A stretch of 64,000 nucleotides of DNA, from positions 2,457 to 66,456 of the forward strand of contig CALKWM010000013.1 of assembly GCA_938004065.1 (NCBI GenBank). Reading direction: 5' to 3'. Below, piece by piece: positions 7,849 through 64,000 of this stretch. The DNA is from an uncultured bacterium. GTDB lineage: Bacteria; Patescibacteriota; JAHJAL01. The notes below the pieces were generated by a model. That model ran no database searches, was not told the origin of the DNA, and worked only from the letters and a program-made list of their open reading frames with translations. Each line of letters opens with the position of its first letter. Positions within the stretch are counted from its first letter, which is position 1. The translations under genes and the position numbers were made by a program.

Positions 7849-7871
7849 GAGATTGGATTAATAAGTAATAA

Positions 7872-7909
7872 GTATGCGCCCAAGGCGCACCAGATGACTG
7901 GAAAAGTAA
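7872..7909 (+). promoter_or_regulatory. Conserved 38-bp double-dyad element, copy 1 (GTATGCGCCCAAGGCGCACCAGATGACTGGAAAAGTAA); on the coding (minus) strand it ends 23 nt upstream of the rnj ATG.
   Basis: Exact 38-mer shared with copies at 37494 and 53515/53556. It contains the dyads TGCGCC-CAA-GGCGCA and CCAG-ATGA-CTGG. Confidence 0.6.
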
Positions 7910-7985
7910 TAAGTAAGAATTGTTAAATGGTCGGATAAAAAATTGTCATATTGCAATATCAAAATATTGTGAAGTCGAATATGAT

Positions 7986-15747: not shown

Positions 15748-15821
15748 AGCCGTCCATCGGAATTGAACCGATAACCTATGGTTTACGATACCATTGCTCT
15801 ACCAAATTGAGCTAGGACGGC
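15748..15821 (-). tRNA. tRNA-Thr (anticodon CGT).
   Basis: The minus-strand sequence is GCCGTCC-TA-GCTC-AATTTGGTA-GAGC-A-ATGGT-ATCGTAA-ACCAT-AGGTT-ATCGG-TTCAATT-CCGAT-GGACGGC-T. It has a 7-bp acceptor stem, a GG D-loop and a TTCAATT T-loop. The anticodon loop is ATCGTAA, giving anticodon CGT (Thr). CCA is not encoded. Confidence 0.8.
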
Positions 15822-15831
15822 GTGGTAAGAA

Positions 15832-15869
15832 GTATGCGCCCTAGGCGCACCAGATGACTGGAAAAGTAA
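15832..15869 (+). promoter_or_regulatory. 38-bp double-dyad element, copy 2 (CCTAGG variant), ending 10 nt upstream of the mature tRNA-Thr 5' end.
   Basis: GTATGCGCCCTAGGCGCACCAGATGACTGGAAAAGTAA. A degenerate partial copy (GTATGCCCCTAGGGTGGAAAGTA) lies at about 15925. Confidence 0.55.
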
Positions 15870-15969
15870 AAAGTAATAAATAAGAAGGGGAGAGTAAAAA
15901 GTAATAAATAAGAAGCAAGAAGTATGCCCCTAGGGTGGAAAGTACCAATGTCCAATATCCAACGATTAA

Positions 15970-18789: not shown

Positions 18790-18930
18790 GGATAGGTGGT
18801 GAGTAAGAAGTAAGAAGTAAGAAATAAAAAGTAAGATGTTGATATTTGTGGCTGTTTATTTGGGGGAAAATGGGTGTTTGGTAGACTGGTTATTAATTCT
18901 ATTTTAACACGTAATTTTCGGTATATGATA

Positions 18931-21971: not shown

Positions 21972-22074
21972 GAAGTAAGAAGTAAGAAGTAAGAGATGAA
22001 GGCCGGTTCTTATAGAGGGTCTGTGTGGAGAAAGTATTGTATAATGGAGTTATAATTATTAATAAAATTAAATA

Positions 22075-24958: not shown

Positions 24959-26785
24959 TTATTCAACGGTAACGCTTTTGGCGAGGTTGCGGGGTTTGTC
25001 GACATCGAGATTTTTCATCACTCCCAGATAGTAGGCAAGAAATTGAAAGGGAATAACTGATAGGATAGGTGTAAGCATTTCCAGTGTTTTGGGTATGAAG
25101 ATGATATCGTCGGCGATTTGGGAAAGATTTTTATTGCCTTGAGTAGTAATGGCAATTATTTCGCCACCGCGGGCTTTGATTTCTTCCATTCCGGAGATAT
25201 TTTTTTCATAGACACTGTCTTTGGGGGCAATAAAAATAGCCGGGAAATTTTTATCGATAAGGGCGATTGGACCGTGTTTCATTTCGCCGGAAGGGTATCC
25301 TTCGGCGTGGATATAGGAAATTTCTTTGATTTTGAGGGCGCCTTCAAGAGCAATAGGAAAGTTGTATTTGCGACCCATACAGAGAAAATTGTGGCATGAG
25401 AAGTATTTCTTGGCAATTTTTTTGATATTGTCTTTTTGGGTCAAGGTTTTTTGTACTAAGTTTGGGATATGTGACAATTCAGTAATAATTCTTTTACCCA
25501 TGGTTAAAGACATGTCTCTTTGTCGTCCCAATATAACAGTTAGTAGTGCGAGTACGGTCAGTTGCGAAGTAAATGCTTTGGTTGAGGCAACACCGATTTC
25601 CGGTCCGGAGTGATTGTAAACCCCGGCGTCTGTTTCGCGAGCGATAGTGGCCCCGACAACGTTGACAATTCCGAGAGTTAGAGCATTTTTAAGCTTGGCT
25701 TCCTTGATGGCGGCGAGAGTGTCGGCAGTTTCTCCGGATTGGGAGATAGCCAGGACGGCTACAGTGTGGTCGAGGTGAGTTTTTCGGTATCGAAATTCAG
25801 AAGCGTATTCGACAGCAGTGTCGATACCGGCGTATTCTTCGAACATGTATTTGCCAACCAAACCGGCATAATATGATGTACCGCAAGAAATAATAATTAT
25901 TTTTTTGATATTTTTTAAGTTGGGCAAAATGTCATTTATTCCTCCCAATTTAGCCAATCCTTCTTTGATGTCGAGACGGCCACGCATGGTGTCGAGAAGT
26001 GAATGCGGTTGTTCCATAATTTCTTTGAGCATAAAGTGTTTGTATCCCTGTTTTTCAGCAGTATCCAGATCCCAATCCACCTGACTGATATTTTTGTCGA
26101 TGAGTTGATTGTTGATGTTGATAATTTCATATCCGTTTTTATTGAGGATAAGAATTTCTCCATCATCGAGGTAAATGATATTTTTGGTGTATTTAATGAT
26201 GGCTGAAATGTCGGATGCGATAAAATACTCATTGTTGCCGATGCCCAGGATAAGTGGACTGCCTTGTTTGGCAGCGATGAGTTGATCTTGTTCGTCTTGA
26301 TTTAGTATGACCAATCCGTATGTTCCTTTGAGTTGTTTGATGGTTTTGAGGACGGAGTTTTTGAAATTATTTTTTTTGAGGTTTTCTTCAATCAAATGGG
26401 CGATTACTTCGCTATCCGTTTGCGATACAAATTGATGATTTTTTTGAAGTTTGGTGGAAAGTTTTTGATAGTTTTCGATGATGCCGTTGTGGACGATATG
26501 AATTTTACCGGTGCAATCATAATGAGGGTGTGAATTGATTGTCGATGGTTTGCCGTGAGTGGCCCATCTGGTATGAGCAAGGCCGATATTGGTTTTGATG
26601 TGATGTTTTTTTAGTTTTGATTCGAGTGCGGAAATTTTGCCAACCGCTTTGTGACAAACTGCTTTTTTGTTTTCAATTACGGTCAGTCCACAGCTGTCGT
26701 ATCCCCGGTATTCCAGATGGTGTAGTCCGGTTAAAAGGATAGGTATTGCGTTTTTTTGGCCAAGGTAGGCAATGATACCGCACAT
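24959..26785 (-). CDS. glmS: Glutamine--fructose-6-phosphate aminotransferase.
   Basis: Starts MCGIIAYLG (N-terminal nucleophile Cys) and has two SIS domains. The ORF-track start at 26851 runs through the upstream AAGTAAG repeats and is rejected. Confidence 0.9.
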   Translation of the reverse strand: MCGIIAYLGQKNAIPILLTGLHHLEYRGYDSCGLTVIENKKAVCHKAVGKISALESKLKKHHIKTNIGLAHTRWATHGKPSTINSHPHYDCTGKIHIVHNGIIENYQKLSTKLQKNHQFVSQTDSEVIAHLIEENLKKNNFKNSVLKTIKQLKGTYGLVILNQDEQDQLIAAKQGSPLILGIGNNEYFIASDISAIIKYTKNIIYLDDGEILILNKNGYEIININNQLIDKNISQVDWDLDTAEKQGYKHFMLKEIMEQPHSLLDTMRGRLDIKEGLAKLGGINDILPNLKNIKKIIIISCGTSYYAGLVGKYMFEEYAGIDTAVEYASEFRYRKTHLDHTVAVLAISQSGETADTLAAIKEAKLKNALTLGIVNVVGATIARETDAGVYNHSGPEIGVASTKAFTSQLTVLALLTVILGRQRDMSLTMGKRIITELSHIPNLVQKTLTQKDNIKKIAKKYFSCHNFLCMGRKYNFPIALEGALKIKEISYIHAEGYPSGEMKHGPIALIDKNFPAIFIAPKDSVYEKNISGMEEIKARGGEIIAITTQGNKNLSQIADDIIFIPKTLEMLTPILSVIPFQFLAYYLGVMKNLDVDKPRNLAKSVTVE

Positions 26786-26789
26786 TTGA

Positions 26790-26838
26790 TAAGAAGTAAG
26801 AAATAAGAAGTAAGAAGTAAGAAATAAGAAGTAAAAAG
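26790..26838. repeat. AAGTAAG/AAATAAG heptamer array immediately 5' of glmS.
   Basis: AAGAAGTAAGAAATAAGAAGTAAGAAGTAAGAAATAAGAAGTAAAAAG. Confidence 0.85.
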
Positions 26839-26857
26839 AAACAATATGCAAATAATC

Positions 26858-29897: not shown

Positions 29898-30989
29898 ATG
29901 GTGTTGATATTGGGAATTGAAACTAGTTGCGATGAGACGGGAATTGCCATCGTGGAAGATGGGAGTAGGATTGTGTCCGAAAAATTAAAAAGCTCGGTTG
30001 ATTTGCAGGCGGAATACGGGGGGGTGGTACCGGAATTGGCTAGTCGGGTACATGTGGAGTATGTAAATATTTTGATAAAAGAGGCATTGGATGAGGCCGG
30101 TTTAACCATGACGGAAATTGATGCGGTGGCGGTGGCCAATGGTCCGGGATTGGTGGGAGCTTTGTTAGTGGGAACAATGGTGGCCAAGACGATCGGATTG
30201 GTGGAGAAAAAAAAGTTGATAGCGGTAAATCATCTGGAAGGACATATTTTCTCATCTTTTTTATCATTAGAAAAAAAAGATGAAAAGTTACAAGTATCAA
30301 GAATCAAGGATCAAGTTCTAAGTGAAGAAAAAAACAAGAAAATGATTTTTCCGATGGTGGTTTTGATAGTTAGTGGAGGACATACGGAATTGGTGTTGAT
30401 GGAAGATTATGGAGTGTATAAAATCTTGGGTAGTACGATTGATGATGCGGCCGGCGAAGCGTTTGACAAAGCGGCGAAAATTTTGGGATTGCCATATCCG
30501 GGAGGGCCGAGCATTGCACAGAGTGCTGTGCAAGTATCAAGTATCAAGGATCAAGGATCAAGTAATGAGGAGATAAATTTACCGAGGCCGATGTTGAATT
30601 CGAAAGATTATAATTTTTCTTTTTCGGGGTTGAAAACGGCGCTGTTATACAAAATTACTAATGATAAATTACAAATTACTAATGAAAAGATAAGAAATAT
30701 GTTGGCGTGGGAATTTCAGGAGGCGGTGTGCGATGTATTGGCCAAAAAAACCAAGCGGGCGATGGAAGATTTGGGAGTGAAAAGATTGGCGGTGGTGGGC
30801 GGGGTGGCGGCCAATCAAAGATTGCGGGAGAAATTGCATGAGACAATTGATGATGAGATTGCGATTCCGGAGTTTAAATATTGTACTGACAATGGGGTAA
30901 AAATTGCCACAGCAGGGTATTATAAGTATAGAGTTGGTAATTTTATCGATTGGCAGGATTTGGAGGTAAAGAGTAATTGGAGTTTGTAA
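29898..30989 (+). CDS. tsaD: tRNA N6-adenosine threonylcarbamoyltransferase TsaD (Kae1/YgjD), carrying two in-frame heptamer-repeat insertions.
   Basis: MVLILGIETSCDETGIAIV, HLEGHIFS, SGGHTEL and GVAANQRLRE motifs. The inserted segments encode EKLQVSRIKDQVLSEE and VQVSSIKDQGSS and are written in CAAGTAT/CAAGGAT heptamers. Confidence 0.9.
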   Translation: MVLILGIETSCDETGIAIVEDGSRIVSEKLKSSVDLQAEYGGVVPELASRVHVEYVNILIKEALDEAGLTMTEIDAVAVANGPGLVGALLVGTMVAKTIGLVEKKKLIAVNHLEGHIFSSFLSLEKKDEKLQVSRIKDQVLSEEKNKKMIFPMVVLIVSGGHTELVLMEDYGVYKILGSTIDDAAGEAFDKAAKILGLPYPGGPSIAQSAVQVSSIKDQGSSNEEINLPRPMLNSKDYNFSFSGLKTALLYKITNDKLQITNEKIRNMLAWEFQEAVCDVLAKKTKRAMEDLGVKRLAVVGGVAANQRLREKLHETIDDEIAIPEFKYCTDNGVKIATAGYYKYRVGNFIDWQDLEVKSNWSL

Positions 30990-33958: not shown

Positions 33959-33996
33959 GGAGCAGACTGATTTTGGTCTGCTCCTAACTTTTTTAT
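33959..33996 (+). terminator. Rho-independent terminator of valS.
   Basis: GGAGCAGAC-tgattttg-GTCTGCTCC followed by TAACTTTTTTATTTT. Confidence 0.6.
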
Positions 33997-34475
33997 TTTA
34001 TAAATTCTATTTCCATTTCCATGACCCCGAGTTGTGTGCAGAGGTCATGGTTTTCCGGGCCTCCCATAAATATATCCACTCGATCACCCGAGATATAATC
34101 CGGATTTCCCGTGTCTTCAAATGTGAAGACTTTTTGGGATCCGTCGGTGTGATATTGCAGATATTCCATACCGGATGGAACGGAAACAAATATGGCTTTT
34201 TTACCGAGCCATTTTTTGTCTCCGGCCAAAGTCTGGCCGGCCACCGGTACGGTTTGAGAGGCGGTTAACCCGATTTCGGACCAACTACCGCAACAAATCG
34301 GACAGGAACAATAAAAAGTAACCGTTACTTTTTTGGTTGTTGCTTCCGATTGGCAGTTGGTGGTAGTCGGGATGGTTTTGCTGGCAAGAGAATGTTTGGT
34401 AACATTTTCATGCGGCAAATCCATACCGGAAAAAAGAAATAGAATTATTAATACAATTTGTGGCATATTTGCCAC
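33993..34475 (-). CDS. 3D-domain protein (MltA/YuiC/YocH-like cell-wall hydrolase fold) with a signal peptide.
   Basis: TVTFYCSCPICCG...VPVAGQTLAGDKK...FEDTGNPDYISGDRVDIFMG matches the 3D domain with its conserved Asp residues. Confidence 0.5.
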   Translation of the reverse strand: MANMPQIVLIILFLFSGMDLPHENVTKHSLASKTIPTTTNCQSEATTKKVTVTFYCSCPICCGSWSEIGLTASQTVPVAGQTLAGDKKWLGKKAIFVSVPSGMEYLQYHTDGSQKVFTFEDTGNPDYISGDRVDIFMGGPENHDLCTQLGVMEMEIEFIK

Positions 34476-34612: not shown

Positions 34613-35533
34613 TTGAATAAAATTGTCAAAAATTTGTTAATGGGGTTGTTGATATTCGTACTGGTTGTGGCAGGCGGTTTGCTGGGGTGGTATTATTCCA
34701 AATCATGGCGGGGGCAAAAATCAGCTCTATATCTCGAGAAATCGGAGCAATATATCGAACAAAAAAGTAGTAATGCTTTGTGGGAATTGGAGAAGGCGTA
34801 TTTGATGGGGATGAATTATGGTGATTATCAAATAAAAAAGGCCTTGGCTCTACTAAAGTTAAATGATGAACGAGCAATCGCACAAGCCAAATTGACGATC
34901 GACAGAGGGTGGGTTAGTGATGATTTGTATTTTTGGTATGGCAAAAGGTTATTTGAAATTGGAGATTATGTAAATGCGGAAAAGCAGTTTTTGAAGATTT
35001 CGGATGATTTGGACGAAAGTAATATCGATGAGTATTATGAGTATATGGCATTTTTGGCCGGTAGCCATGGGAATTTTTCTCAAGCGGTGGAGTTTTTGGA
35101 TAAGTCGTTGGTAAGTGAAAATGAGTTGGCAAATAATATGAAGATATTTTTGGATGCGGTAAATGATAATTGGACAGAGATTGATAAGCTGGAGCTTGCG
35201 GATGAGATGAAGAAAAATTTGGATGAACTGGAAAAAATGAATGGGGATTTGTATGTTTTAAAGTTGGCGGACGTGGCTAATGATATGGGTTTGTCGAGCT
35301 GGTGCCGGGCTTTGATCGATGGTCAACAGTGGAAGGGGGTAAACAATAAATATATCTATCTGGTTTATGCTCGATCGTATTTGGTAGAAAATGATTGTGG
35401 AAATGCATGGGAATATCTAAAAAACGTGGAGGAAGACGATAGTATCGATGAAGATTTGCATATCTTGTTGGCGCAAACGTATAAATGTTTGGGAAATGTG
35501 GAGTGGATGGAATGGGAAGAGGGTAAGCAATAA
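34613..35533 (+). CDS. Hypothetical N-terminally membrane-anchored protein (helical/TPR-like); the gene ends inside a CAATAAG array.
   Basis: N-terminal TM LLMGLLIFVLVVAGGLLGWYY. The stop codon lies inside the heptamer array (..EGKQ*). Confidence 0.45.
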   Translation: MNKIVKNLLMGLLIFVLVVAGGLLGWYYSKSWRGQKSALYLEKSEQYIEQKSSNALWELEKAYLMGMNYGDYQIKKALALLKLNDERAIAQAKLTIDRGWVSDDLYFWYGKRLFEIGDYVNAEKQFLKISDDLDESNIDEYYEYMAFLAGSHGNFSQAVEFLDKSLVSENELANNMKIFLDAVNDNWTEIDKLELADEMKKNLDELEKMNGDLYVLKLADVANDMGLSSWCRALIDGQQWKGVNNKYIYLVYARSYLVENDCGNAWEYLKNVEEDDSIDEDLHILLAQTYKCLGNVEWMEWEEGKQ

Positions 35534-35583
35534 GCAATAAGCAATAAGCAATAAGCAATAAGCAATAAGCAATAAGCAATAAG
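35523..35583. repeat. (CAATAAG)n heptamer array, ~8.5 units.
   Basis: Perfect tandem CAATAAG units in the convergent intergenic space between the 34613 gene and the PilB-like gene. Confidence 0.95.
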
Positions 35584-35687
35584 GGTTATGGAGGTGAGGG
35601 GAGAAATGGATAATAAATATATGTAAGTAAATCAAGAAAAAACGCCATAGGTGGCGTTTTGGTTTGAAAATTATTTGATATATCCTC

Positions 35688-37457: not shown

Positions 37458-37493
37458 GGTGAGAAGTAAGAAATAAGAAGTAAGAAGTAAGAA

Positions 37494-37531
37494 GTATGCG
37501 CCCAAGGCGCACCAGATGACTGGAAAAGTAA
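37494..37531 (+). promoter_or_regulatory. 38-bp double-dyad element, copy 3, flanked on both sides by AAGTAAG repeats, 36 nt upstream of the PilB-like ATG.
   Basis: Exact 38-mer GTATGCGCCCAAGGCGCACCAGATGACTGGAAAAGTAA. Confidence 0.6.
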
Positions 37532-37716
37532 AAAGTAAAAAGTAAGAAATGAAATCTATTATTAGAAAATTGTTGGGTTGTTATTTATTTTTTTTAAAAT
37601 CGTATTATTGTATCACATATGGTAAAAATATGCAAGGTTTTTATGATTGGGAAAATCTGTACTCGAAGAGTATTTATGAGAGTGTGTTTTGGTTATTTTG
37701 TAACTAAAAATACTTA

Positions 37717-44476: not shown

Positions 44477-45877
44477 TTATTTTTTATTGGCGTAATATAA
44501 TATTGTGTTGGAATAACCTCTATTAGCGTCACCAAACTCGGCTAGTTCCAAATCGGACCAGGAGATTTTGGTACGATTGCGATTGCCCGGATCGTTGAGG
44601 ATTACTCCTTCTTGATCATACCCGACGGCAACGACAAAATGGCTGGGACCACCGGATGACAAATTGGGACCGCCACCAAGGACTACCGGTATTCCTTTGT
44701 CCAAATAAGTGGTAATGGTCTTTTGTTGTTGACTGAAATCAAAAACGAATTGATTTTCTTCAACGATAATATCCGGGTATTCGCTGTGGATGTTTTGGGC
44801 AGTAACTGTGATACCGGTTAAACTGCATACAGATGTTGGGTCAACGTCTTTGCCCATAAATTTTAGTACCATAGCAAGAGAGGTGCAGTAACAGCCGGCT
44901 TTTTGGATATCGGCACTGTAATCACCTTGATTAAAATACCACTCACGCGGTTTGTCCAGTGATTTGGCACCGGAGGGTGTGTCGTATGTTGGTGTTACTG
45001 CTTCGGCTTGGGTGGAAATATCGGTTGGGTAGTGTTTGTTGCCACTGCCCATGCCACCCATAGCTAGAAAAAGGACAACAATTAGAAAAATTATGATGAC
45101 GATAATGATGATGATCAAAATAACTACTACTACCGGCCAACCAACCGCGGCAGCGCCTCCGGCGGCAGCGGCAGTTCCACCAGCGGCAGCGGCAGCTCCG
45201 CCCGCTGCAGCGGCACCTCCACCAGCGGCGGCCACGGTTCCACCGGCAGCAGCTGTACCGGCACCGGCTGCTCCCGCTCCCGCGGCTCCGGCACCGGCTC
45301 CGGTTGCACCAGCAGTGCCAGCACCAGTTGCTCCCGTGCCTGCTCCGGCACCGGCTGACGGACCACCCGGTGGCATTTTGCCGGTAGGTGTTTTTGGGGA
45401 TTGCGTGCCCGGCTGACCGGGTTTTTGACCGGAACCGGGTTTGTCCGGTTGCTTGTTTTTGTCGGCATCTTCGCGATTAATCTTGCGGTTTTTGTCCGGT
45501 TGGGATTTGTCCTGGTCGGTGTCTTGTTTGTCTTTATCTTTGTCCTGTTTTTTGTCTTTATCCTTGTCTTGATCTTTTTCTTTGTCCTTGTCTTTATCCT
45601 GATCCTGATCTTTATCTTTATCTTTATCCTTTTCTTTTTCTTTGTCTTGATCCTGATCTTTTTCTTTGTCAGGTTCCTGGTCGGGTTTTTTTTCCGGAGA
45701 TGGTTGTTCCGGACTACTGGTACTTTGTGGTGAAGTGTCGGGTTGGCGGTCAAGATTGATTGATTGCGGTTCTGATCCACCGGCTGATGACGATTGTCCG
45801 CCACCTGGTGTGGAGGTACCGGATATATTTATCTCAATGTCTTTTTTTTCGATATCTTCGCGTTTGAATTTGGCCAT
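44477..45877 (-). CDS. Membrane-anchored papain-like cysteine peptidase (Peptidase_C39-like domain) with a disordered KD-repeat and Gly/Ala/Thr-rich N-terminal region.
   Basis: The N-terminus contains (KDKD/QDKD) repeats, then a GAGAGTGATGAG stretch, then a single TM VVVILIIIIIVIIIFLIVVLFLA. The C-terminal domain carries a catalytic-Cys motif AGCYCTSLAMVL and a His motif PSHFVVAVGYD. Confidence 0.6.
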   Translation of the reverse strand: MAKFKREDIEKKDIEINISGTSTPGGGQSSSAGGSEPQSINLDRQPDTSPQSTSSPEQPSPEKKPDQEPDKEKDQDQDKEKEKDKDKDKDQDQDKDKDKEKDQDKDKDKKQDKDKDKQDTDQDKSQPDKNRKINREDADKNKQPDKPGSGQKPGQPGTQSPKTPTGKMPPGGPSAGAGAGTGATGAGTAGATGAGAGAAGAGAAGAGTAAAGGTVAAAGGGAAAAGGAAAAAGGTAAAAGGAAAVGWPVVVVILIIIIIVIIIFLIVVLFLAMGGMGSGNKHYPTDISTQAEAVTPTYDTPSGAKSLDKPREWYFNQGDYSADIQKAGCYCTSLAMVLKFMGKDVDPTSVCSLTGITVTAQNIHSEYPDIIVEENQFVFDFSQQQKTITTYLDKGIPVVLGGGPNLSSGGPSHFVVAVGYDQEGVILNDPGNRNRTKISWSDLELAEFGDANRGYSNTILYYANKK

Positions 45878-45953
45878 AAAAAATATTGCAATAAGATTTA
45901 ATTATAGCAATATTTTTTAGAGAAAATACAGTGGGAAAATGGTTAATATTTTG

Positions 45954-46055
45954 ATAATTTCTAGTTAATATTTTTTTAATATAAATTTGGATATGGTGAG
46001 AGAGTGAATGTAATTGTGATAAGGGGGTGAAATTTAAAAAAAATGTTAAGAAAAT
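45954..46055 (+). promoter_or_regulatory. Conserved ~100-nt leader, copy A, upstream of the 46077 gene.
   Basis: About 92% identical to 47034-47135. It contains the G-rich boxes GGTGAGAGAGTGAATG and GATAAGGGGGTGAAAT. Confidence 0.5.
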
Positions 46056-46076
46056 TTACGAAAGGTGTGATAAATA

Positions 46077-46961
46077 ATGAACAGATTGGTTTGGATAATG
46101 ATGATAATGTGGTTATTGTGTAGTATAGCGAATGCCGAGATGATTACAAATCTGGTAGGAATTGTGGACAAAGATTTGTATTTTCTGAAGCTTGATTACA
46201 AAAATTTCGTGATTGATTTTAATCATAAAATTTTAATGCAAGAGCCAATGCTGAAGGTGGAATTTTCTACTAAAAGGAATGGAGAGGTGCTGGTATTTTT
46301 TGGTTCTGATGGTAAGTGCAATAAAGTATGTTTATATAGTAATAGTGGTGAAGAATTGAAGGAGGTGAGTAATGATTGTGATACTTTGTTTGTGAGAGAC
46401 ATGATTTCGGATGGGAATTATGTTATTGGTAGTAATGCCAATATGGGGCAAGTGATTAAAAACAATAAAATAATTTGTGAGCTTGGCAGAGCAAATTATT
46501 TCGGAATAAATGGTGATTGGGTATATTATGCCAGAAGTACTGATAGAGGAACTGCTTTTCCCATGTATAAATTGAATTTGATTTCCCGAGAAAAAATAAA
46601 ATTAGCTGATAAACTTTATGTGTTCGGTGGGTTGGAAATATTTAACCCATTCGAAATATATTATGAAAATTGTTATGGCGAGGGTGGAAATGTGGTAAAC
46701 CGGATGTGGGCTGAAAATGGTGTATATAGAGAAGAGCGTTTGATTGATGGGTATTTGATAAGACATATCGAAGGATTTAACAAGGAATATGTTTTTACTT
46801 TCGGAAATATAGTGCACAAAGATGATTGGAAGGACGATTGGATATGCGGAGGGGTGCCAAAATTATTTAGATTGAGTGATAATAAAATAATTGAATGTGA
46901 GAGTAATGTGGATGAAATAGAAAATATGGGTGATAAAATTTTCAATTTTGATTTGTTATAA
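46077..46961 (+). CDS. Secreted hypothetical protein (signal peptide; DUF5050/propeller-like repeats).
   Basis: Signal peptide MNRLVWIMMIMWLLCSIANA and a GDWVYYARSTDRG...YKLNL motif. Paralogous in style to the next gene and shares its leader. Confidence 0.5.
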   Translation: MNRLVWIMMIMWLLCSIANAEMITNLVGIVDKDLYFLKLDYKNFVIDFNHKILMQEPMLKVEFSTKRNGEVLVFFGSDGKCNKVCLYSNSGEELKEVSNDCDTLFVRDMISDGNYVIGSNANMGQVIKNNKIICELGRANYFGINGDWVYYARSTDRGTAFPMYKLNLISREKIKLADKLYVFGGLEIFNPFEIYYENCYGEGGNVVNRMWAENGVYREERLIDGYLIRHIEGFNKEYVFTFGNIVHKDDWKDDWICGGVPKLFRLSDNKIIECESNVDEIENMGDKIFNFDLL

Positions 46962-46977
46962 AATAAAAATTGATGGA

Positions 46978-47011
46978 AGATCACTAAATACGAATTTAGG
47001 ATCTTTTTTTT
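46978..47011 (+). terminator. Rho-independent terminator of the 46077 gene.
   Basis: AGATCACTAAAT-acga-ATTTAGGATCT imperfect hairpin followed by a T8 run. Confidence 0.55.
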
Positions 47012-47033
47012 CGTCAAAAAGATAGTTTAGGTT

Positions 47034-47135
47034 TAATGTCTAGATAATTTCTGGTTAATATTTTATTAATAATAATTTGGATATGGTGAGAGGGTGAATG
47101 AAAATGTGATGAGGGGGTGAAATTTAAAAAAAATG
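47034..47135 (+). promoter_or_regulatory. Conserved ~100-nt leader, copy B, upstream of the 47170 gene.
   Basis: ATAATTTCTGGTTAATATTTTATTAATAATAATTTGGATATGGTGAGAGGGTGAATG...GGGGGTGAAATTTAAAAAAAATGTTAAGAAAAT, nearly identical to copy A. Confidence 0.5.
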
Positions 47136-47169
47136 TTAAGAAAATACTTGTGAAAGGAAGTGGAGCGAA

Positions 47170-48237
47170 TTGAAAAAATTAGTTTTTTTGTTGCTAATGG
47201 TAGTTTTTTGCAGTCAAATGGTGTTAGCCGGGGACAAGGTGATTTTTATTAGATCTTCGTCAATGTTGGAAAGTCAGATAATAATTGTTGATCTGTCAGA
47301 ACAAAGTTCTCAGATATATGCAGATGGTTTTAGCAAATTTAGTTATGGTATTTCTTATGATGGTGATTGTTATGTATTGAGCCGGGATGGTAAATTGTTC
47401 TGGTATGGATTTGATGGGATGGAAAAGCAATTAACCTTTAATGCCGTGCCTTGCGAAAGCACCGGTTCGGATGCAGGTCTGTCATTAACCAGTGAGGCCA
47501 ATATAATGCCGGTTTTGAATGCCGGAGGAAAAAAGCTTGTTTTTTTGAAGACCAAATTGATTTCAAGGCCGTTAATTTATGGTGCTGTGTGTTACATGTC
47601 CGACATAAATTCGTCCTCAGTTAGTTTGCGTACCGGGGGATATACTACGCCGGTATGGTTAAATGATGGTTGTATTCTGGCGGCCAAGGTGGAACATTAT
47701 AACAAGGCGGAGTATCATTGTGAGGAGATTTATAGTGTGCCGAGGTTATTGTATTTGGATGGCCGAGATGATGTGAAAATTGCCAATGAAGAAGTGATGG
47801 CCAAGGGGCGAATATTGACAAAATTTTCATCCGAGTCTTCAAATGGAAAACAATTCTTTTTTAAAAAAGAACGATATGTTCGTATAAATGATAATGAATG
47901 GGATGAAAAATATCAGATAGTATTGATGAATGCCGGGGATCTATCTTTTGTAAAAGAATTTACAGGGGCGACTGATGGGGCGTGGTGTGGTGATAAGTTG
48001 ATTCTGGTCAACAAAGACGGGCGCGGAGACAATGTGGGAGTATATAACAGCAAGGGAGAGGTGATTAAAAAACATCGTTTTGGTCATTGCGGGGTACATG
48101 AAGAGATTTATGATATTGTGGGTGTAAATGGGAACAAGATATACATCCATGATGGTGGGGATCATATGTATGTTTTTGATGTGGAAAAAGGGAAAGAAGA
48201 AGTGATTAACCTCTATGGGTATTATATGGGGAGGTAA
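47170..48237 (+). CDS. Secreted hypothetical protein (signal peptide); apparent TTG start.
   Basis: Signal peptide MKKLVFLLLMVVFCSQMVLA. SD-like GGAAGTGGAG upstream. 355 aa. Confidence 0.5.
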   Translation: MKKLVFLLLMVVFCSQMVLAGDKVIFIRSSSMLESQIIIVDLSEQSSQIYADGFSKFSYGISYDGDCYVLSRDGKLFWYGFDGMEKQLTFNAVPCESTGSDAGLSLTSEANIMPVLNAGGKKLVFLKTKLISRPLIYGAVCYMSDINSSSVSLRTGGYTTPVWLNDGCILAAKVEHYNKAEYHCEEIYSVPRLLYLDGRDDVKIANEEVMAKGRILTKFSSESSNGKQFFFKKERYVRINDNEWDEKYQIVLMNAGDLSFVKEFTGATDGAWCGDKLILVNKDGRGDNVGVYNSKGEVIKKHRFGHCGVHEEIYDIVGVNGNKIYIHDGGDHMYVFDVEKGKEEVINLYGYYMGR

Positions 48238-48252
48238 AAAAGGAAAATAAAT

Positions 48253-48280
48253 AATCCGCCGGTTTATCAATCGGCGGATT
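48253..48280. terminator. Bidirectional terminator hairpin between convergent genes.
   Basis: AATCCGCCG-gtttatcaat-CGGCGGATT, a perfect 9-bp GC-rich stem. On the minus strand it is followed by a T-rich run. Confidence 0.5.
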
Positions 48281-52800: not shown

Positions 52801-53485
52801 CAAAAAGATCGTGAAAAGTACCAACCAAATCTTCAATTTTTGTATATTCTGGAAAAAAACTATACAAGCTTTTATATCCTTCTTCATAATATTTTTCCCC
52901 ATAAATGCTTTCTCTTGGGATAAGATAGACATTGCATAAAGCAGGTCCGGTGAATTCTTTCCAAAAAAATTCAAGTTGAGCTTGAAGGCTGTCGATAGGT
53001 TGATTGGTTGATTCGCAATAAGAAGATAAGGCATCGTGTCTGCTTCCATACCATTGGGCCAATCCGTATGCTCCGCTATCTGGGTTGAGAGCTGTAGGAG
53101 AAAATTGGGATTCCTGTTGGAAATTACCTGCTATTGCTGCAGCTTGAGTTTTGTTGAGTCCTTTGGATGTAAGAAAACTTATAACAGTGTTGATGTTTTT
53201 TCTTTGGGATTCGTCAATTGAATTACCTGTATAGGTGCAGGGGCCGGTAGATGAACCTCTAGGTCCGTATGTTTCTAGCAAACAATCCTCAACGCATTTT
53301 CGATCGGTGGGCGAAAGTAAACTATCCGGAGTCAAGCCGGTCATGCCTAACATGGCCATCATGAGAGGTAGTAGAAACATTAATATACCGCAACAGCAAA
53401 GGGTGCAGCAAATATAGAGTATATAGCGCAAGGGGTCGTCCTGGAGATTTGTTTCGTCAGGGATTTGTGGGGTTGGCTCGGACAT
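49841..53485 (-). CDS. Giant membrane-anchored multidomain peptidoglycan hydrolase, in the position of a T4SS VirB1/PrgK/CwlT-type lysin.
   Basis: The start was set at MSEPTPQ (53485) rather than the track start 53533. From N- to C-terminus:
- TM segment RYILYICCTLCCCGILMFLLPLMMAML.
- Phage-tail-lysozyme-like motif AAIAGNFQQESQFSPTA...GAYGLAQW.
- C39-like domain 1 (AGCGFVSTVM...YGHIVLIIGY...NDPYEDH).
- GH3/NagZ-like domain (LEEKIGQILMV...ASDIEGG...KHFPGY...AHTD, GLIITDDLNAVGA).
- M23/LytM-like domain (AHAGFDLIV...QQIATVDDIG...MMHFE).
- C39-like domain 2 (GCGPTALLMLLQSQG...GHYVTIKSY). Confidence 0.7.
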   Translation of the reverse strand: MSEPTPQIPDETNLQDDPLRYILYICCTLCCCGILMFLLPLMMAMLGMTGLTPDSLLSPTDRKCVEDCLLETYGPRGSSTGPCTYTGNSIDESQRKNINTVISFLTSKGLNKTQAAAIAGNFQQESQFSPTALNPDSGAYGLAQWYGSRHDALSSYCESTNQPIDSLQAQLEFFWKEFTGPALCNVYLIPRESIYGEKYYEEGYKSLYSFFPEYTKIEDLVGTFHDLFECSDDLTPFTKRVNYAKAIFENMQCQDISSGPTSNDDKTYISGIKHYNQKQYPNVKLDSVDTIESAGCGFVSTVMAVNYANSTDIDPGTYYTTIEPVWSTIEQNKTLNGKDATRNGSGTIQSFATTETGSTVTEFKYDTNSIPKITGLIDQGTPMVAFTGFMRTSNTDGNYGHIVLIIGYTKDSSGQITSFIVNDPYEDHGTVYTGVKNNGSSGEMAKYEITDFTKYMTNIVHSQDPGKLFYIEGSSQKCKELSLEEKIGQILMVNEANFTTDELEKLKIGSIIMMGGSEDNSLAKIKTITNTLKIKPIIASDIEGGVVNRLKYTSTANNCSNLPSAANMSDPKTSMTSCGKDMKSFGINMNLAPVVDPNLSDSPISADGRTFDGDITTEASNYIDGLILASVIPTLKHFPGYPASAHTDYEKGTSSEDPYQYIKPFDDLKQKYGNKVAIMMNSITYTKISSENAAYTKEIVDKARNGFNGLIITDDLNAVGASLSTNDSTTDRVEKAINAGNDIIMLVSATSGTINEVITNIANKARENEALKNRIEESYNRVITAKKQFNIIGSDSEICGGQGGTTGSTGNNGGSFPGYTQQEIDDCIKKCQEQTQTISDVPPGGRCWPIIGADGKEATLEYGNKGAPNGPRHFKASRPQGDCPVSRAHAGFDLIVGEAGPGPNNCGQTGASWPVIAIESGTVEYVKENFYCGKDYIMVKNDADGSFNGYGEVNTEPFITQGTKIRAGQQIATVDDIGPCCMMHFERPLNANPDGCSIDLPDFQDPYPYLQTTSEQCSTPSTTPTVVTPGEMPHYCQTTDDGCGPTALLMLLQSQGFATSFGERSFYDDYTCNDSSKCVRPLSQSTNMDYLEKQMKKHIPQDKQSCIHRGATKQEIINLAKQGIPVVVGTYYYYNIGIGGFSGHYVTIKSYQEIDGVKNLIINNSGCYQQLGYNGPNEPTPIDKFFDPTINSITKKANWEEGEGWSDFVLYYKC

Positions 53486-53514
53486 GGTAAGAAATAAGAA
53501 GTAAGAAATAAGAA

Positions 53515-53593
53515 GTATGCGCCCAAGGCGCACCAGATGACTGGAAAAGTAATAAGTATGCGCCCAAGGCGCACCAGATGACTGGAAAAGTAA
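53515..53593 (+). promoter_or_regulatory. Two tandem copies of the 38-bp double-dyad element (53515-53552 and 53556-53593), 29 nt upstream of the lysin ATG, preceded by AAATAAG/AAGTAAG repeats.
   Basis: GTATGCGCCCAAGGCGCACCAGATGACTGGAAAAGTAA x2, separated by TAA. Confidence 0.6.
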
Positions 53594-53795
53594 AAGAAAA
53601 AGAAAAATTTAAGGTATATATTAAAAAGAAAAATTAGAACATGAAAAGTTCTAATTTTATTATACGGGGGAGGAGTAAACTTAACAAACTTATCAATTAT
53701 CGAACAAGATAAATAAAGTATCAAGTATAAAGTGAGGTGTTGCTTCGCAACATATTAATTAGATATATAGTTTTTTAAATATTTTTTTCTGGATT

Positions 53796-55800: not shown

Positions 55801-55838
55801 CAAAGTATCAAGTAACAAGTATCAAGTAACAAGTATTT
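55801..55838. repeat. (CAAGTAT CAAGTAA)x2-3 heptamer array just 5' of the VirB4-like gene.
   Basis: CAAAGTATCAAGTAACAAGTATCAAGTAACAAGTATTT. Confidence 0.8.
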
Positions 55839-60390: not shown

Positions 60391-60756
60391 TTATTTTATG
60401 GTTGGATCAACACCGAGGATGTTTTTCTGGACGGTGTAAACGATAGCGAAGGCGGCAAAGATGATGATCAAACCGATAACAGCGTTTAGCAAAGTGGAAG
60501 TGGCTTTTTTGGTTTGTTCCTCATTGCCTTGGGCGGTGATGTAGCTGAAACCACCGATGATCAAAAATACTACCGCGACTAGTCCGGAGATACCCAAGAC
60601 GTAGTTTAAAATCGTGATTATTAATTGTTCGACTTCTTGTTCCTGAGGAGTGTTGGTTGGTCTTTCTAGGGTTTCGGCAAAAGTGATGCCGTAGAGCATT
60701 ACGGTTGAGCCGAGAGCAGAGACTGCCGTAATCGCCTTTTTTACAGTTTTTTTCAT
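60391..60756 (-). CDS. VirB2/TrbC-like pilin paralog 2, the only paralog in the array with a classical Sec signal peptide and a strong SD.
   Basis: The start MKKTVKKAITAVSALGSTVMLYGITFA-ETL is signal-peptide-like and is preceded by AAGGAGA. Core IGGFSYITAQGNEEQTKKATSTLLNAVIGLIIIFAAFAIV. The ORF-track start at 60909 lies in the repeats and is rejected. Confidence 0.65.
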   Translation of the reverse strand: MKKTVKKAITAVSALGSTVMLYGITFAETLERPTNTPQEQEVEQLIITILNYVLGISGLVAVVFLIIGGFSYITAQGNEEQTKKATSTLLNAVIGLIIIFAAFAIVYTVQKNILGVDPTIK

Positions 60757-60766
60757 TTTTTTCTCC

Positions 60767-61095
60767 TTAAAAATAATATATTTTAATAAATAATAAGTAA
60801 TAAGCAATATGCAATAAGCAATATGCAAGAAGCAAGAAGTAATATGCAATATGCAAGAAACAAGAAGCAAGAAGCAAGAAGCAAGAAGTAAGAAAGTATC
60901 AAGGATCAATATTCAATATCCAATATCCAATAAGCAATATGCAAGAAACAATAAGCAAGAGACAAGAAGCAAGAAGCAAGAAGCAAGAAAGTATCAGGGG
61001 TCAATATCCAATATCCAATATCCAAGAAGCAATATGCAATAAGCAAGAAACAAGAAGTATGCGTCCAAGGTGCACCAGATGACTGGAGAAGCAAG
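60767..61095. repeat. Heptamer-periodic SSR spacer between pilin paralogs 2 and 3, containing a diverged copy of the 38-bp element at 61057-61094.
   Basis: Units AATAAGC, AATATGC, AAGAAGC (x3 runs), ATATCCA and AAGAAAC. The element variant is GTATGCGTCCAAGGTGCACCAGATGACTGGAGAAGCAA. Confidence 0.85.
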
Positions 61096-61120
61096 AAAGT
61101 ATTAATATTATTGCATGTTG

Positions 61121-61429
61121 TTAACTAAACAGTACATTAGTAAATAGAGTGTTTACTATAGCATATGATGCGAAAACAATCAAGAGGCCGATGATGGCAT
61201 AGGTAAGAGTCTGAACGGCTTTTTTGCTAGCTTCGTCATTGCCGGCGGAGGTGATGTATTGGTATCCGCCGTAAATTATGAAAATGATAGCGATAATACC
61301 GGCCAAATCGATAGCATAGGTGGCGATGATGAGGATTAGATCAGAAATTTCACCGCCTCCCAAAGGGTCGAGTGAGTTTTCGGGACTGGCGACAGCGAGG
61401 GAAGAGAAAAATTTGGTAATTAAGTTCAT
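61121..61429 (-). CDS. VirB2/TrbC-like pilin paralog 3.
   Basis: MNLITKFFSSLAVA leader, then ...DPLGGGEISD..., and the YGGYQYITSAGNDEASKKAVQTLTYAIIGLLIVFASYAIV core. Confidence 0.6.
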   Translation of the reverse strand: MNLITKFFSSLAVASPENSLDPLGGGEISDLILIIATYAIDLAGIIAIIFIIYGGYQYITSAGNDEASKKAVQTLTYAIIGLLIVFASYAIVNTLFTNVLFS

Positions 61430-61611
61430 AATAGATGGTAAAAAAAAGTATCAAAGATAAATAAGCAAGAAATAAGAATCAAGAAGAAAGAAGCAAGAAT
61501 CTGGTAAAAACAATAATTTTAAAAAAGAAGAATTTACAAAGAAAAATTAGTTGAATATTGCATATTGCGTATTGATTATTGCATATTGTATATTGCATAT
61601 TGCATATTTTG
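61430..61611. repeat. SSR spacer between pilin paralogs 3 and 4.
   Basis: AAATAAGCAAGAAATAAGAATCAAGAAGAAAGAAGCAAGAA, then TATTGCATATTGCGTATTGATTATTGCATATTGTATATTGCATATTGCATATT, which is the inverse orientation of the AATATGCAATA units. Confidence 0.8.
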
Positions 61612-61920
61612 TTACAGTCCGATGGCGGATTTGATGCTACGGACGATGATGATGGCGGCAAAGGCGACGATGATGCCGATGATGGCGTAGGTGAGGGTGG
61701 AAGTGGCTTGTTTGGCTTTGGTTTCGTCACCGGCGGAAGTGATATAGAGGAAACCACCATATATAACCATGATAACAGCGATAATCCCAACCAGGTCAAA
61801 AGCGTATTCAACGATACTGGTAATCAGGCCGGTAAGGTCTTTATTGCCCAAAGGGTCGGTAACTTTGTCTTCGAGTTTATCGATAGCGAGGGAAGAGAAT
61901 AGAGGTTGTAGTATATTCAT
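61612..61920 (-). CDS. VirB2/TrbC-like pilin paralog 4.
   Basis: The start MNILQPLFSSLAIDKLEDKVTDPLGNKD (ATG at 61920; the track uses an upstream TTG). Core YGGFLYITSAGDETKAKQATSTLTYAIIGIIVAFAAIIIV. Confidence 0.6.
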   Translation of the reverse strand: MNILQPLFSSLAIDKLEDKVTDPLGNKDLTGLITSIVEYAFDLVGIIAVIMVIYGGFLYITSAGDETKAKQATSTLTYAIIGIIVAFAAIIIVRSIKSAIGL

Positions 61921-62111
61921 GTTCTTATTTTGAAGATAATATTTAATAAGCAATAAGCAATATGCAAGAAAGTATCAAGGACCAATATCCAATATCCAAG
62001 AAGCAAGAAACAAGAAGCAAAAAACAAGAAAGTATCAAGGATCAATATCCAATATCAAAGAAGCAATATGCAATATGCAATATTCAATTTCTAGGTGTTT
62101 TTAATATTGTT
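61921..62111. repeat. SSR spacer between pilin paralogs 4 and 5.
   Basis: AATAAGCAATAAGCAATATGCAAGAAAGTATCAAGGACCAATATCCAATATCCAAGAAGCAAGAAACAAGAAGCAAAAAACAAGAAAGTATCAAGGATCAATATCCAATATCAAAGAAGCAATATGCAATATGCAATATTCAA. Confidence 0.85.
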
Positions 62112-62492
62112 TTATCCGCCGATGGCGGAGCGGACAGTGCGGACGATTACCAATGCACCGAGGGTGATGATGATACCAATCACAGCGTAGGTGATGATGG
62201 ATTGGCCTTGTTTGGCTTTTTGTTCATCACCAGCGGAAGTTATGTAGATAAAACCGCCATAAACGAGCATAGCGACCGCGATAATGCCGACCAGATCGAA
62301 AGCGTATTCGATAACGTTGGTGATGAGATCGGTGATGTTTTGGCCGGGGATGATGCCTTCGAGAAAATTGATACGGTTGGAAAGTTGTGATTTAACAGCT
62401 TCCGGTTCGCCACCGCCGGCAGGTGTTGATCCGGTAACCGGAGCGATGGCTTCATCGGCTAAAAATGTAAAGAATGTATAGAGGGTGTTCAT
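62112..62492 (-). CDS. VirB2/TrbC-like pilin paralog 5.
   Basis: MNTLYTFFTFLADEAIAPVTGSTPAGGGEPEAV leader region. Core YGGFIYITSAGDEQKAKQGQSIITYAVIGIIITLGALVIV. The track start at 62609 lies in the repeats and is rejected. Confidence 0.6.
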   Translation of the reverse strand: MNTLYTFFTFLADEAIAPVTGSTPAGGGEPEAVKSQLSNRINFLEGIIPGQNITDLITNVIEYAFDLVGIIAVAMLVYGGFIYITSAGDEQKAKQGQSIITYAVIGIIITLGALVIVRTVRSAIGG

Positions 62493-62771
62493 CGAAGTAA
62501 TAAGTGAAAAGTAAGAAGTAATAAGTAATATGCAATATCCAATAAGCAATATGCAAGAAGCAATAAGCAATAAGCAATAAGCAAGAAGCAAGAAAGTATC
62601 AATAACCAATATTCAATATCCAATAAGCAAGAAGCAAGAAGCAAGAAAGTATCAAGGATCAATATCCAATATCCAATAAGCAATATGCAAGAAAGTATCA
62701 AGGACCAATGTCCAGTATCCGATAAGCAATATGCAATAAAGTATCAAGGATCAACATCCAATTTTTTAAGA
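62493..62771. repeat. SSR spacer between pilin paralogs 5 and 6.
   Basis: AAGTAAT, AATATGC, AATAAGC x3, AAGAAGC, the AGTATCAAGGATCAATATCCAATATCCAATAAGCAATATGC unit, and diverged copies toward 62760. Confidence 0.85.
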
Positions 62772-63200
62772 TTATGGTCCGGTGTTGGGGTTGAGCTGGT
62801 TGAAATTTTTGGGGTCGGTGGGGATTTCGGTAAATGAAACACCGGAAAATTGGTCGAGGAAAGTGCTGACGATCAGGTATGCGCTCATGGCTACCAGAAA
62901 TCCGATGATAGCATAGGTCAAAGTGTTTTTGCCTTTTTGGACCTGGTCTTGGTTTCCGGAAGACATAACGATAGTAAATCCGCCGATCATCATATATATT
63001 ATAGCAACAAAACCGGCGATGCCGATAAGATTTTTACCCAGGTATAGCAAAAAGCCGATGGCATCGATGAAAGTAAGTTTGGAAGGTGTTTTTCCAAATT
63101 CGTAACCTAGAAATGTGAGATTCTCCGCTTCGGCGGCGTAGGCGGTAGTCAGGAGATTGAGGTGGATTGTGGATAAAAATTGATAGATTTTGGTAAACAT
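62772..63200 (-). CDS. VirB2/TrbC-like pilin paralog 6 (more diverged).
   Basis: 142 aa. Core IGGFTIVMSSGNQDQVQKGKNTLTYAIIGFLVAMSAYLIV, with an extra ~35-aa C-terminal tail. Confidence 0.55.
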   Translation of the reverse strand: MFTKIYQFLSTIHLNLLTTAYAAEAENLTFLGYEFGKTPSKLTFIDAIGFLLYLGKNLIGIAGFVAIIYMMIGGFTIVMSSGNQDQVQKGKNTLTYAIIGFLVAMSAYLIVSTFLDQFSGVSFTEIPTDPKNFNQLNPNTGP

Positions 63201-63222
63201 AAAAATTTGATTATGAAAAAAA

Positions 63223-64000
63223 TCATGTTGCCAGTCCCAGGATGCTTTGGATGGAGGCCAGGATCAGAGAGGAGAGTAGAACGAGTGCCAAACCGATGAT
63301 GGCGTAGGTAAGTCCGGTTTGGGCTTTTTTGATAGTTTCCTGGTTACCGCCGGCGGTAACCATACCGTAACCATTGATGATGATAAATATGGTGGCGATG
63401 ATACCGGCTAATCCGAGCAAGATGTTGATAATTCGATTGAAAATAGGGGCTAACATATGTAGCAGATCGGCGTTTTCGGTGGGGATGTTGAGATTGGAAA
63501 CGACAAAGTTGGGGATGTTGTAGGTGATCGGTACAGTTTCTATGTTTTCACCGGGAGGAGTTTCGCCGTTGCTACATTGTTCCTCGGTGGCGAGGGTTGT
63601 TCCGGCCGGGCAGGTCTCACCTTGGATGGATTGGCAAAATCCGGAATCCGGATCCAGACAGAGGATGGTGCCGGCAGGAGGGGTGGGATTGGCAGGGTCG
63701 GTAGGATCGGAATTGATCTTCATGGCATTGACTATTTTGATCCTGGCGGCGGAGTCGGAACCGCAAACGATGGTGTCCAAATCGGTGGGGTGATCAACGA
63801 CGGTAACCGGTAGTGTACTGCAAATATCACGCAAAGCGGGAGGGAGAAAATCAACCGCGGTTTTGAATTGGCCGTATTGGGTACCTGGATACAATTTGGT
63901 ACCATTAGCGCCGAATCCTTGATCTTTGAGCCAGGTCAGTAATTCTTGACTGGCGGTAGTGTAGGGAGGACAATCATCGGGGTTTTCCGAAGGACATTCC
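63223..64000 (-). CDS. Larger protein with a C-terminal VirB2/TrbC-like pilin domain (paralog 7); the ORF stays open to the window end, so it is 5'-partial.
   Basis: C-terminal NGYGMVTAGGNQETIKKAQTGLTYAIIGLALVLLSSLIL core. The N-terminal part is Cys/Pro/Thr-rich. The reading frame continues past 63894 (the track's TTG start) up to position 64000. Confidence 0.55.
   Translation of the reverse strand, partial: ECPSENPDDCPPYTTASQELLTWLKDQGFGANGTKLYPGTQYGQFKTAVDFLPPALRDICSTLPVTVVDHPTDLDTIVCGSDSAARIKIVNAMKINSDPTDPANPTPPAGTILCLDPDSGFCQSIQGETCPAGTTLATEEQCSNGETPPGENIETVPITYNIPNFVVSNLNIPTENADLLHMLAPIFNRIINILLGLAGIIATIFIIINGYGMVTAGGNQETIKKAQTGLTYAIIGLALVLLSSLILASIQSILGLAT

Follow-up and report, generated by a model that had tools for sequence, protein, structure and literature searches.

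Two adjacent secreted-protein genes with a shared leader

This analysis concerns a 64-kb window, that is, the whole stretch of 64,000 nt taken from contig CALKWM010000013.1 of an uncultured bacterium, and in particular two neighbouring genes, gene 1 and gene 2, each of which is preceded by a copy of the same non-coding block (leader copies A and B, Table 1). The two genes are the sole plus-strand genes inside a long minus-strand block, and their locus is laid out as leader, gene and terminator, twice, with a period of 1090 nt. Since a terminator-like hairpin followed by a U8 tract lies between gene 1 and copy B, the two genes probably form two separate transcription units. A GC-rich hairpin between gene 2 and the convergent gene for a protein of 515 amino acids (aa) is a probable bidirectional terminator.

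By simple tests, both open reading frames (ORFs) are real: in each, the annotated frame alone scores as coding, and at 294 and 355 codons they far outrun the longest ORF of shuffled sequence (131 codons). A first-pass annotation had described both products as carrying signal peptides, and their N-termini, read from the sequence as MNRLVWIMMIMWLLCSIANA/E and MKKLVFLLLMVVFCSQMVLA/G, are indeed typical of such peptides. Each copy of the block ends 21-24 nt before the start codon, and each gene has its own ribosome-binding site (RBS). For gene 2, other gene callers use an ATG at 47197, which shortens the product to 346 aa (contig DAIUKQ010000005.1, GCA_036848155.1). Sequence from that record is identical to the window; since the first base of the contig falls at 35530 of the window, the window stems from a different assembly of the same organism.

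Table 1 Features of the duplicated leader, its two genes and the repeats of the window.
Feature	Position	Strand	Description
Leader copy A	45943-46055	+	113-nt extended block; high-identity core 45953-46055
AT-rich half, copy A	45942-45985	+	promoter-like on sequence reading
Box 1, copy A	45991-46008	+	ATATGGTGAGAGAGTGAA
Box 2, copy A	46014-46031	+	TTGTGATAAGGGGGTGAA; includes Shine-Dalgarno-like AAGGGGGTGA
Upstream ORF, copy A	46043-46123	+	MLRKFTKGVINNEQIGLDNDDNVVIV, then stop; 26 codons; overlaps the gene 1 start in another frame
Gene 1	46077-46961	+	294 aa; orphan; signal peptide; predicted all-beta; own RBS AAAGGTG at 46061-46067
Hairpin + U8 after gene 1	46978-47011	+	terminator-like; -15 kcal/mol, z -3.0
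Leader copy B	47033-47145	+	113-nt extended block; core 47043-47145
AT-rich half, copy B	47043-47076	+	promoter-like; -10-like AATAAT at 47071-47076
Box 1, copy B	47081-47098	+	ATATGGTGAGAGGGTGAA
Box 2, copy B	47104-47121	+	ATGTGATGAGGGGGTGAA; Shine-Dalgarno-like
Upstream ORF, copy B	47133-47153	+	MLRKYL, then stop; 6 codons; ends 16 nt before the gene 2 start
Gene 2	47170-48237	+	355 aa; TTG start; orphan; signal peptide; own RBS GGAAGTGGAG at 47156-47165
GC-rich hairpin	48253-48280	.	between gene 2 and convergent 515-aa gene; -18.8 kcal/mol, z -2.35
Heptamer arrays	262-574, 15863-15929, 18783-18836, 21955-21994, 26776-26856, 30531-30564, 35510-35590		window
Heptamer arrays, continued	37460-37537, 53481-53599, 55803-55836, 60773-61100, 61442-61499, 61945-62088, 62457-62796		window
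Inverted heptamer array	61551-61608		window; sole exception in orientation
Hairpin module	7844-7915, 15804-15875, 15894-15965, 37466-37537, 53487-53558, 53528-53599, 61029-61100		window

Extent and limits of the duplicated block

A repeat search of the window returned the two plus-strand copies as one block of 113 nt at 90% identity, with copy B offset from copy A by +1090, and a direct count gave 102 identical bases of 113. Within the core, 95 of 103 bases are identical (92.2%), and the eight differences consist of three A/G and five A/T exchanges, at 45963, 45975, 45982, 45983, 46003, 46011, 46014 and 46021. When the 150 nt upstream of each gene were compared by blastn, they aligned at 88% over 125 nt (E = 1.7e-43). 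The initial claim of leaders about 92% identical ahead of both genes was thus borne out, far beyond chance. The interval first given for copy A (45954-46055) was right, but the one for copy B (47034-47135) lay 10 nt out of register, so that the pair was only 34% identical; the true partner, at 92.2%, is 47044-47145. Both G-rich boxes are present as first described, as is the A8 run (46036-46043 and 47126-47133), and each box pattern has exactly two matches in the window, against none in 100 shuffles.

The similarity stops sharply on both sides. The left flanks (63 nt beside each copy) are unrelated (p 0.47), and so is the stretch of 21-24 nt from the end of the block to each start codon (p 0.21). 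The coding sequences (CDSs) do not align either: the best blastn match between the two has an E value of 0.4, and the two proteins yield a single 28-residue BLASTP match (E 0.018; shuffle p about 0.025), so the earlier description of them as distantly similar was overstated, the similarity not being significant. Upstream, the CDS of a 466-aa protein and gene 1 are likewise without alignment (best E 0.15). Coding DNA copied together with the leader would still align at 8% divergence, and it does not; the concern that the block might belong to a larger duplication including coding sequence was not borne out. The first 60 coding nt of the two genes do align above shuffles (p < 0.001, codon shuffling included), but the unrelated hydrophobic N-terminus at 34613 aligns with gene 2 nearly as well (score 10 vs 12), and we therefore attribute this similarity to the coding of signal peptides and not to ancestry.

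These results bear directly on one alternative, namely that the whole unit of 1090 bp (leader, gene and terminator) was duplicated in tandem and the proteins then diverged very fast, while purifying selection or repeated gene conversion kept the leader. In its favour are the twofold leader-gene-terminator order with its 1090-nt period, the signal peptides and predicted all-beta structure of the two products, and the marginal protein match. However, no significant protein or DNA similarity exists outside the block, the similarity at the gene starts is matched by an unrelated gene, and the scenario needs a rate contrast of more than 10-fold with a knife-edge boundary. Protein structure adds little, since the single-sequence AlphaFold models, although all-beta, are unreliable (predicted local distance difference test values 41 and 47) and too poor to compare. 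We therefore regard duplication of the whole unit as unlikely.

Neither protein could be placed in a family. Among 5.8 billion proteins, genes 1 and 2 found only themselves, and an exhaustive HMMER scan of 1.84 billion representatives gave only marginal matches for gene 2 (E at least 1.8e-5), which also shows weak similarity to designed PQQ-type beta-propeller blades. Relatives are all but absent for both genes and for the 515-aa neighbour, so that no orthologous leaders were available for comparison. In our view, the locus is probably the product of a duplication of the leader only, in which a promoter and most of a 5' untranslated leader, copied without coding sequence, came to stand before both genes.

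Promoter-like and purine-rich halves of the block

The block consists of an AT-rich, promoter-like half followed by a purine-rich half. In copy A, a -10-like TATAAA (45980-45985) is preceded by a weak -35 (TTTCTA), and its counterpart in copy B is an AATAAT. The AT-rich left third of the block (about 45943-45985 and 47033-47076), with these hexamers, its weak -35 and AT-rich upstream DNA, would serve as the RNA-polymerase site, and transcription would start near 45990 and 47080. A promoter at this place is plausible; the organism uses ordinary sigma-70-type promoters elsewhere in the window (TTGACA-17-TATAAT before 18999 and TGnTATAAT before the 466-aa gene). A promoter scan also proposed a minus-strand candidate in copy B (TTCACC-18-TATTAT), which was discarded, there being no minus-strand gene for it to drive. 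The remaining 65 nt or so would form an unstructured, purine-rich and C-free leader with two direct repeats of about 18 nt, the second of them a near-perfect Shine-Dalgarno (SD) sequence, to which each gene would add its own 21-24 nt with its own RBS.

The two repeats are the G-rich boxes. They lie 23 nt apart and are identical at 15 of 18 positions in copy B and at 12 of 18 in copy A. Most likely they act either as a ribosome-docking or mRNA-protecting site in the RNA or as a tandem site for a DNA-binding regulator, and the sequence alone cannot decide between the two.

For the second of these, the direct repeats (consensus ATRTGRTGAGRGGGTGAA), at 22-23 bp or two helical turns from each other, would be bound by a regulator dimer or a tandem pair, for example of response regulators, which would control both genes, and selection would conserve the block. 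We entertain this tentatively, as a distinctly less likely possibility; it is compatible with copying of the leader and could serve as a refinement of it. Beyond the spacing and similarity of the boxes, it gains from a further direct repeat in the AT-rich half of copy A, GTTAATATTTT (45942-45958 and 45964-45980, 22 nt apart), and from the weak -35, which on sequence reading suggests dependence on an activator. However, copy B has only a degenerate form of the GTTAATATTTT repeat, and the boxes follow the sole plausible -10, a placement that suits a repressor rather than an activator. Furthermore, no regulator gene is recognisable and no DNA-binding domain is recorded among the neighbours, no further sites occur in about 71 kb of genome, and operators rarely demand 92% identity over 100 nt. 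Of the original proposal, a shared cis element that could co-regulate both genes stays plausible, and the boxes, which are indeed a direct repeat, could be an operator pair.

The first possibility concerns the RNA. Box 2 (AAGGGGGUGA) would act as an "orphan" SD that docks the 30S subunit far from the main start and thereby either protects the 5' end from decay, as in STAB-SD elements, or feeds a short upstream ORF, raising or tuning expression of the secreted proteins; as an account of the conserved block this strikes us as rather unlikely. Its pairing with the anti-SD, for which a generic sequence was assumed here and below, reaches -14.5 kcal/mol in copy A and -14.9 in copy B, while the genes' own RBSs reach -6.5 (gene 1) and -8.6 (gene 2) and the strongest of 26 other genes -11.2. 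Box 2 is situated about 45-50 nt upstream of the main start codons, in a leader that is unstructured and therefore accessible, and the 34 nt around it are free of differences. Orphan SDs in leaders are described as stabilising mRNAs in Bacillus (a statement in PMC3997798, citing Agaisse & Lereclus 1996).

Several facts speak against a role for box 2 as a docking site. Most genes of the window have no SD, so SD pairing may matter little in this organism, and its true 16S 3' end lies outside the window. SD-like strings arise easily on a very G-rich strand, and box 2 ranks among about a dozen strongest such sites on the plus strand of the 64 kb. The upstream ORFs start at an ATG formed by the final A of the A8 run and the following TG, 13 nt past box 2, which is a long spacing, and they differ in length between the copies, the repeat covering only their first four codons.

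Absence of RNA structure in the leader

The first-pass annotation had also suggested a riboswitch or attenuator, which the analysis does not support. The 103-nt core holds a single C, so that G-C pairing is essentially impossible. For the leaders of about 110 nt, the minimum free energies are -4.2 and -4.1 kcal/mol, with z scores of +1.13 and +0.79 against shuffles; the whole blocks score +0.2 and +0.87, and the minus strands are no better. No predicted structure is common to both copies, which fold differently, and none of the eight differences between the cores can be read as compensatory. The covariance-model search of both leaders against Rfam gave no match at the gathering score or at E <= 10. 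The leaders also contain no terminator hairpin with U-tract, no anti-terminator and no partner that could sequester the SD. A structured cis-regulatory RNA would account for a long conserved non-coding block with conserved purine-rich boxes ahead of two different genes, but in view of these results we consider it highly improbable.

Several weaker candidates were also set aside. A sub-threshold Rfam match to Bacilli-1 (24 bits, where gathering requires 55.6; 46425-46503) falls within gene 1 and was taken as chance. A long-range A-U helix that would join the A8 run to the T-rich promoter half was not significant and not common to both copies. A G-quadruplex was rejected on reading the sequence, since there are just three G-runs in copy A and an 18-nt loop would be required in copy B. 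A conserved leader peptide, and with it a leader-peptide attenuator, is unlikely, because the upstream ORFs of copies A and B, of 26 and 6 codons, share only four codons. The mini-ORFs within box 1 (MVRE and MVRG, each followed by a stop) have no RBS.

Further copies and origin of the duplication

Further copies of the block were sought as the first-pass annotation had proposed, and none appeared in about 71 kb of this genome or in the public collections scanned. The window contains no other copy at low stringency, and extending the sequence by about 5.8 kb on its right side and some 1 kb on its left adds none. The boxes, allowed up to 3 mismatches, have no further matches in the window and none in the extension. 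In metagenome contigs an exact 24-mer gave 0 matches, viral contigs gave 0, and the plasmid and phage collections none. The two-box pattern did occur 7 times in genome contigs (a collection evidently without the source genome) and 22 times in metagenome contigs, but all of these lie in unrelated contigs, most of them GC-rich, that resemble the block in nothing but the pattern, and they count as chance. As regards the end of an insertion sequence or a miniature inverted-repeat transposable element, no terminal inverted repeats occur in or around the block, no transposase lies nearby, and the 71 kb searched contain no other copy.

A related strain, 99.2% identical over 4.5 kb, carries gene 2 (ENA samples ERZ15185739 and ERZ28615714). 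Because a strain this close already has gene 2 while the leader copies are about 8% apart, the duplication is much older than the split of the strains.

If the leader alone was copied, the 92% identity would reflect that copying, whether by promoter capture, Campbell-type or unequal recombination, or gene conversion, and not selection on an RNA fold. By the Campbell-type route, a circle with the leader and gene 1 would integrate into the gene 2 leader, and direct repeats in exactly the present arrangement would result. More generally, leader-only copying, homogenisation by gene conversion and unusually strong constraint are all routes to such a pair, and two copies cannot separate them. The consequence would be that two adjacent, independently terminated genes for lineage-specific secreted proteins are switched on by the same signals.

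A number of observations weigh against copying of a promoter with its leader. A consensus promoter scan called no plus-strand promoter inside the block, the -35 is weak, and the best -10 hexamer is displaced by 1-4 nt between the copies. The identity of the last 34 nt (the box 2 core, A8 and ATGTTAAGAAAAT), which hold none of the eight differences (chance about 0.04), hints at constraint on that part, and with two copies, selection and recent copying are indistinguishable. The marginal protein similarity (p about 0.02) leaves an ancient common origin of the genes possible. Finally, the search for further copies in this genome covered only about 71 kb.

A more far-reaching version is that the block is a portable expression cassette, in which a promoter is combined with a strong but orphan site for ribosome docking, although SD sequences are otherwise scarcely used in this genome. 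The lineage would re-use the cassette to switch on newly arisen or acquired secreted proteins in its type IV secretion cluster. We think this improbable; if it were true, further genomic copies would mark a small regulon of secreted or effector proteins.

The copying of a promoter or leader is a familiar event that occurs fairly often, and no new class of mechanism follows from it. If our preferred reading of leader-only copying is right, the locus would offer a clean and small example of promoter/leader re-use on two unrelated orphan secreted-protein genes, in a type IV secretion system (T4SS) cluster of a poorly sampled uncultured bacterium. A search for the block in the full genome would then give a handle on the co-regulated secreted proteins of the lineage, and the leader would lend itself to testing what a strong SD-like sequence does in a genome mostly without such sites.

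Genome surroundings

The genome around the duplicated block is more unusual than the block itself. The surrounding minus-strand genes encode a type IV secretion-like apparatus, with T4SS pilin paralogues and TrbL-like, PrgI, TraC-like and VirB4-like proteins, together with a wall hydrolase of 1214-1230 aa (lysozyme/C39/GH3/M23), the C39-like 466-aa protein, a 1892-aa protein and a T2SSE ATPase. The region 60391-63894 and its right-hand extension (L037 5709-9800) hold about six small paralogous T4SS-pilin/TrbC-like genes (PF18895, PF04956), which share a conserved 43-nt coding stretch (family D11).

The 466-aa protein (44477-45877, minus strand) contains a long D/K/E-rich low-complexity tract and an Ala/Gly-rich one, both encoded by tandem repeats; it also has a hydrophobic segment and, at its C-terminus, a Peptidase_C39_2 domain. 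Just outside leader copy A, at 45877-45919, a near-perfect palindrome with 18-nt arms (94% complementary; as RNA -13.6 kcal/mol, z -4.6) covers the start codon edge, the short leader and the TGnTATAAT-type -10 of this divergent gene, and it looks like the operator of the 466-aa gene.

Tandem repeats of heptamers (TAAGAAG, CAAGAAG, CAATATG/CAATATC and TAAGCAA) fill many or most of the intergenic regions. The arrays read the same way on the plus strand regardless of the orientation of neighbouring genes, with the one exception listed in Table 1. On the minus strand the heptamers make up leaders rich in C and U immediately before many start codons (...cttcttacttcttactcacc ATG), and heptamer-rich leaders ending in ...cttattggatattgaata TTG precede 60391-60909 and 62112-62609. 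Intergenic direct repeats of another heptamer, TAACTGA, are described for Beggiatoaceae in PMC4679880. In addition, a module of about 40 nt with two small hairpins (GTATGCGCCCAAGGCGCACCAGATGACTGGAAAAG) occurs 7 times beside heptamer arrays, between minus-strand genes; it may serve in termination or processing, or be a repeat like those of the repetitive extragenic palindromic type.

Strand asymmetry is extreme. GC skew runs from +0.04 to +0.56 in every 1-kb bin of the window, and the C-rich strand carries about 30 of the 38 long ORFs. At third codon positions, the GC skew is about -0.4 to -0.7 in minus-strand genes (with the exception of 33993-34475, -0.21) and +0.4 to +0.64 in every plus-strand gene; since the sign splits by strand, this skew follows the DNA strand and not the gene. 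Many minus-strand leaders are without any G. Among the start regions of 28 ORFs, 25 have a weak SD site or none (weaker than -6 kcal/mol), and clear SDs are present only at 20466 (-11.2 kcal/mol), gene 2 and gene 1. An Rfam scan of the window found only one tRNA and no 16S rRNA.

Comparison with known systems

In its 5' leader position and its conservation before different genes, the block resembles the riboswitches and leader-peptide attenuators of Rfam, but unlike them it has neither a fold nor an expression platform, matches no covariance model and is almost free of C. Operators of response regulators of the OmpR/PhoB or LytTR type are built of direct repeats spaced roughly one or two helical turns apart. 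The two similar boxes, in direct orientation and 22-23 bp apart, are like such operators, whereas their location downstream of the presumed -10 and the lack of a cognate regulator or regulon among the neighbours and in the 71 kb are not. To our knowledge, the box sequence matches no known motif.

STAB-SD elements are strong SD sequences in leaders that stabilise mRNA even without an associated start codon, the example being the cryIIIA leader of Bacillus thuringiensis (Agaisse & Lereclus 1996, as cited in PMC3997798). Such an element is situated close to the transcript 5' end and stabilises through pairing to the 3' end of 16S rRNA. Under the assumed anti-SD, the block likewise has a near-perfect SD in the 5' leader, tens of nt upstream of the true start and apart from the RBS of the gene, which the main ORF does not use. 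In contrast to the Bacillus case, most genes of this genome have no SD, and since the function proposed here is wholly a matter of interpretation, the likeness is to be taken as a resemblance only.

A close parallel in form is offered by putative mobile promoters (PMPs; Matus-Garcia, Nijveen & van Passel 2012, Nucleic Acids Res 40:10032, PMC3488235), a class that is purely descriptive and implies no mechanism. They are defined as non-coding DNA of more than 50 nt that is at least 80% identical and lies within 150 nt upstream of non-homologous genes of one genome, with a BLAST E value below 1e-4 and with downstream CDSs and upstream CDSs each lacking alignment. The commonest class in that survey was families of two members, with a mean identity of 92% (PMC3488235). 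The upstream alignment reported above lies well inside these bounds, and neither the downstream CDSs (blastn 0.40, BLASTP 0.018) nor the upstream CDSs yield an alignment. Where the members of a PMP family are dispersed, the present copies are neighbours, set 1090 nt apart on either side of a single gene. Judged on its sequence, the block thus fits the operational definition of a PMP, its promoter activity and mobility both being putative, as a two-member family of about 92% identity before non-homologous genes.

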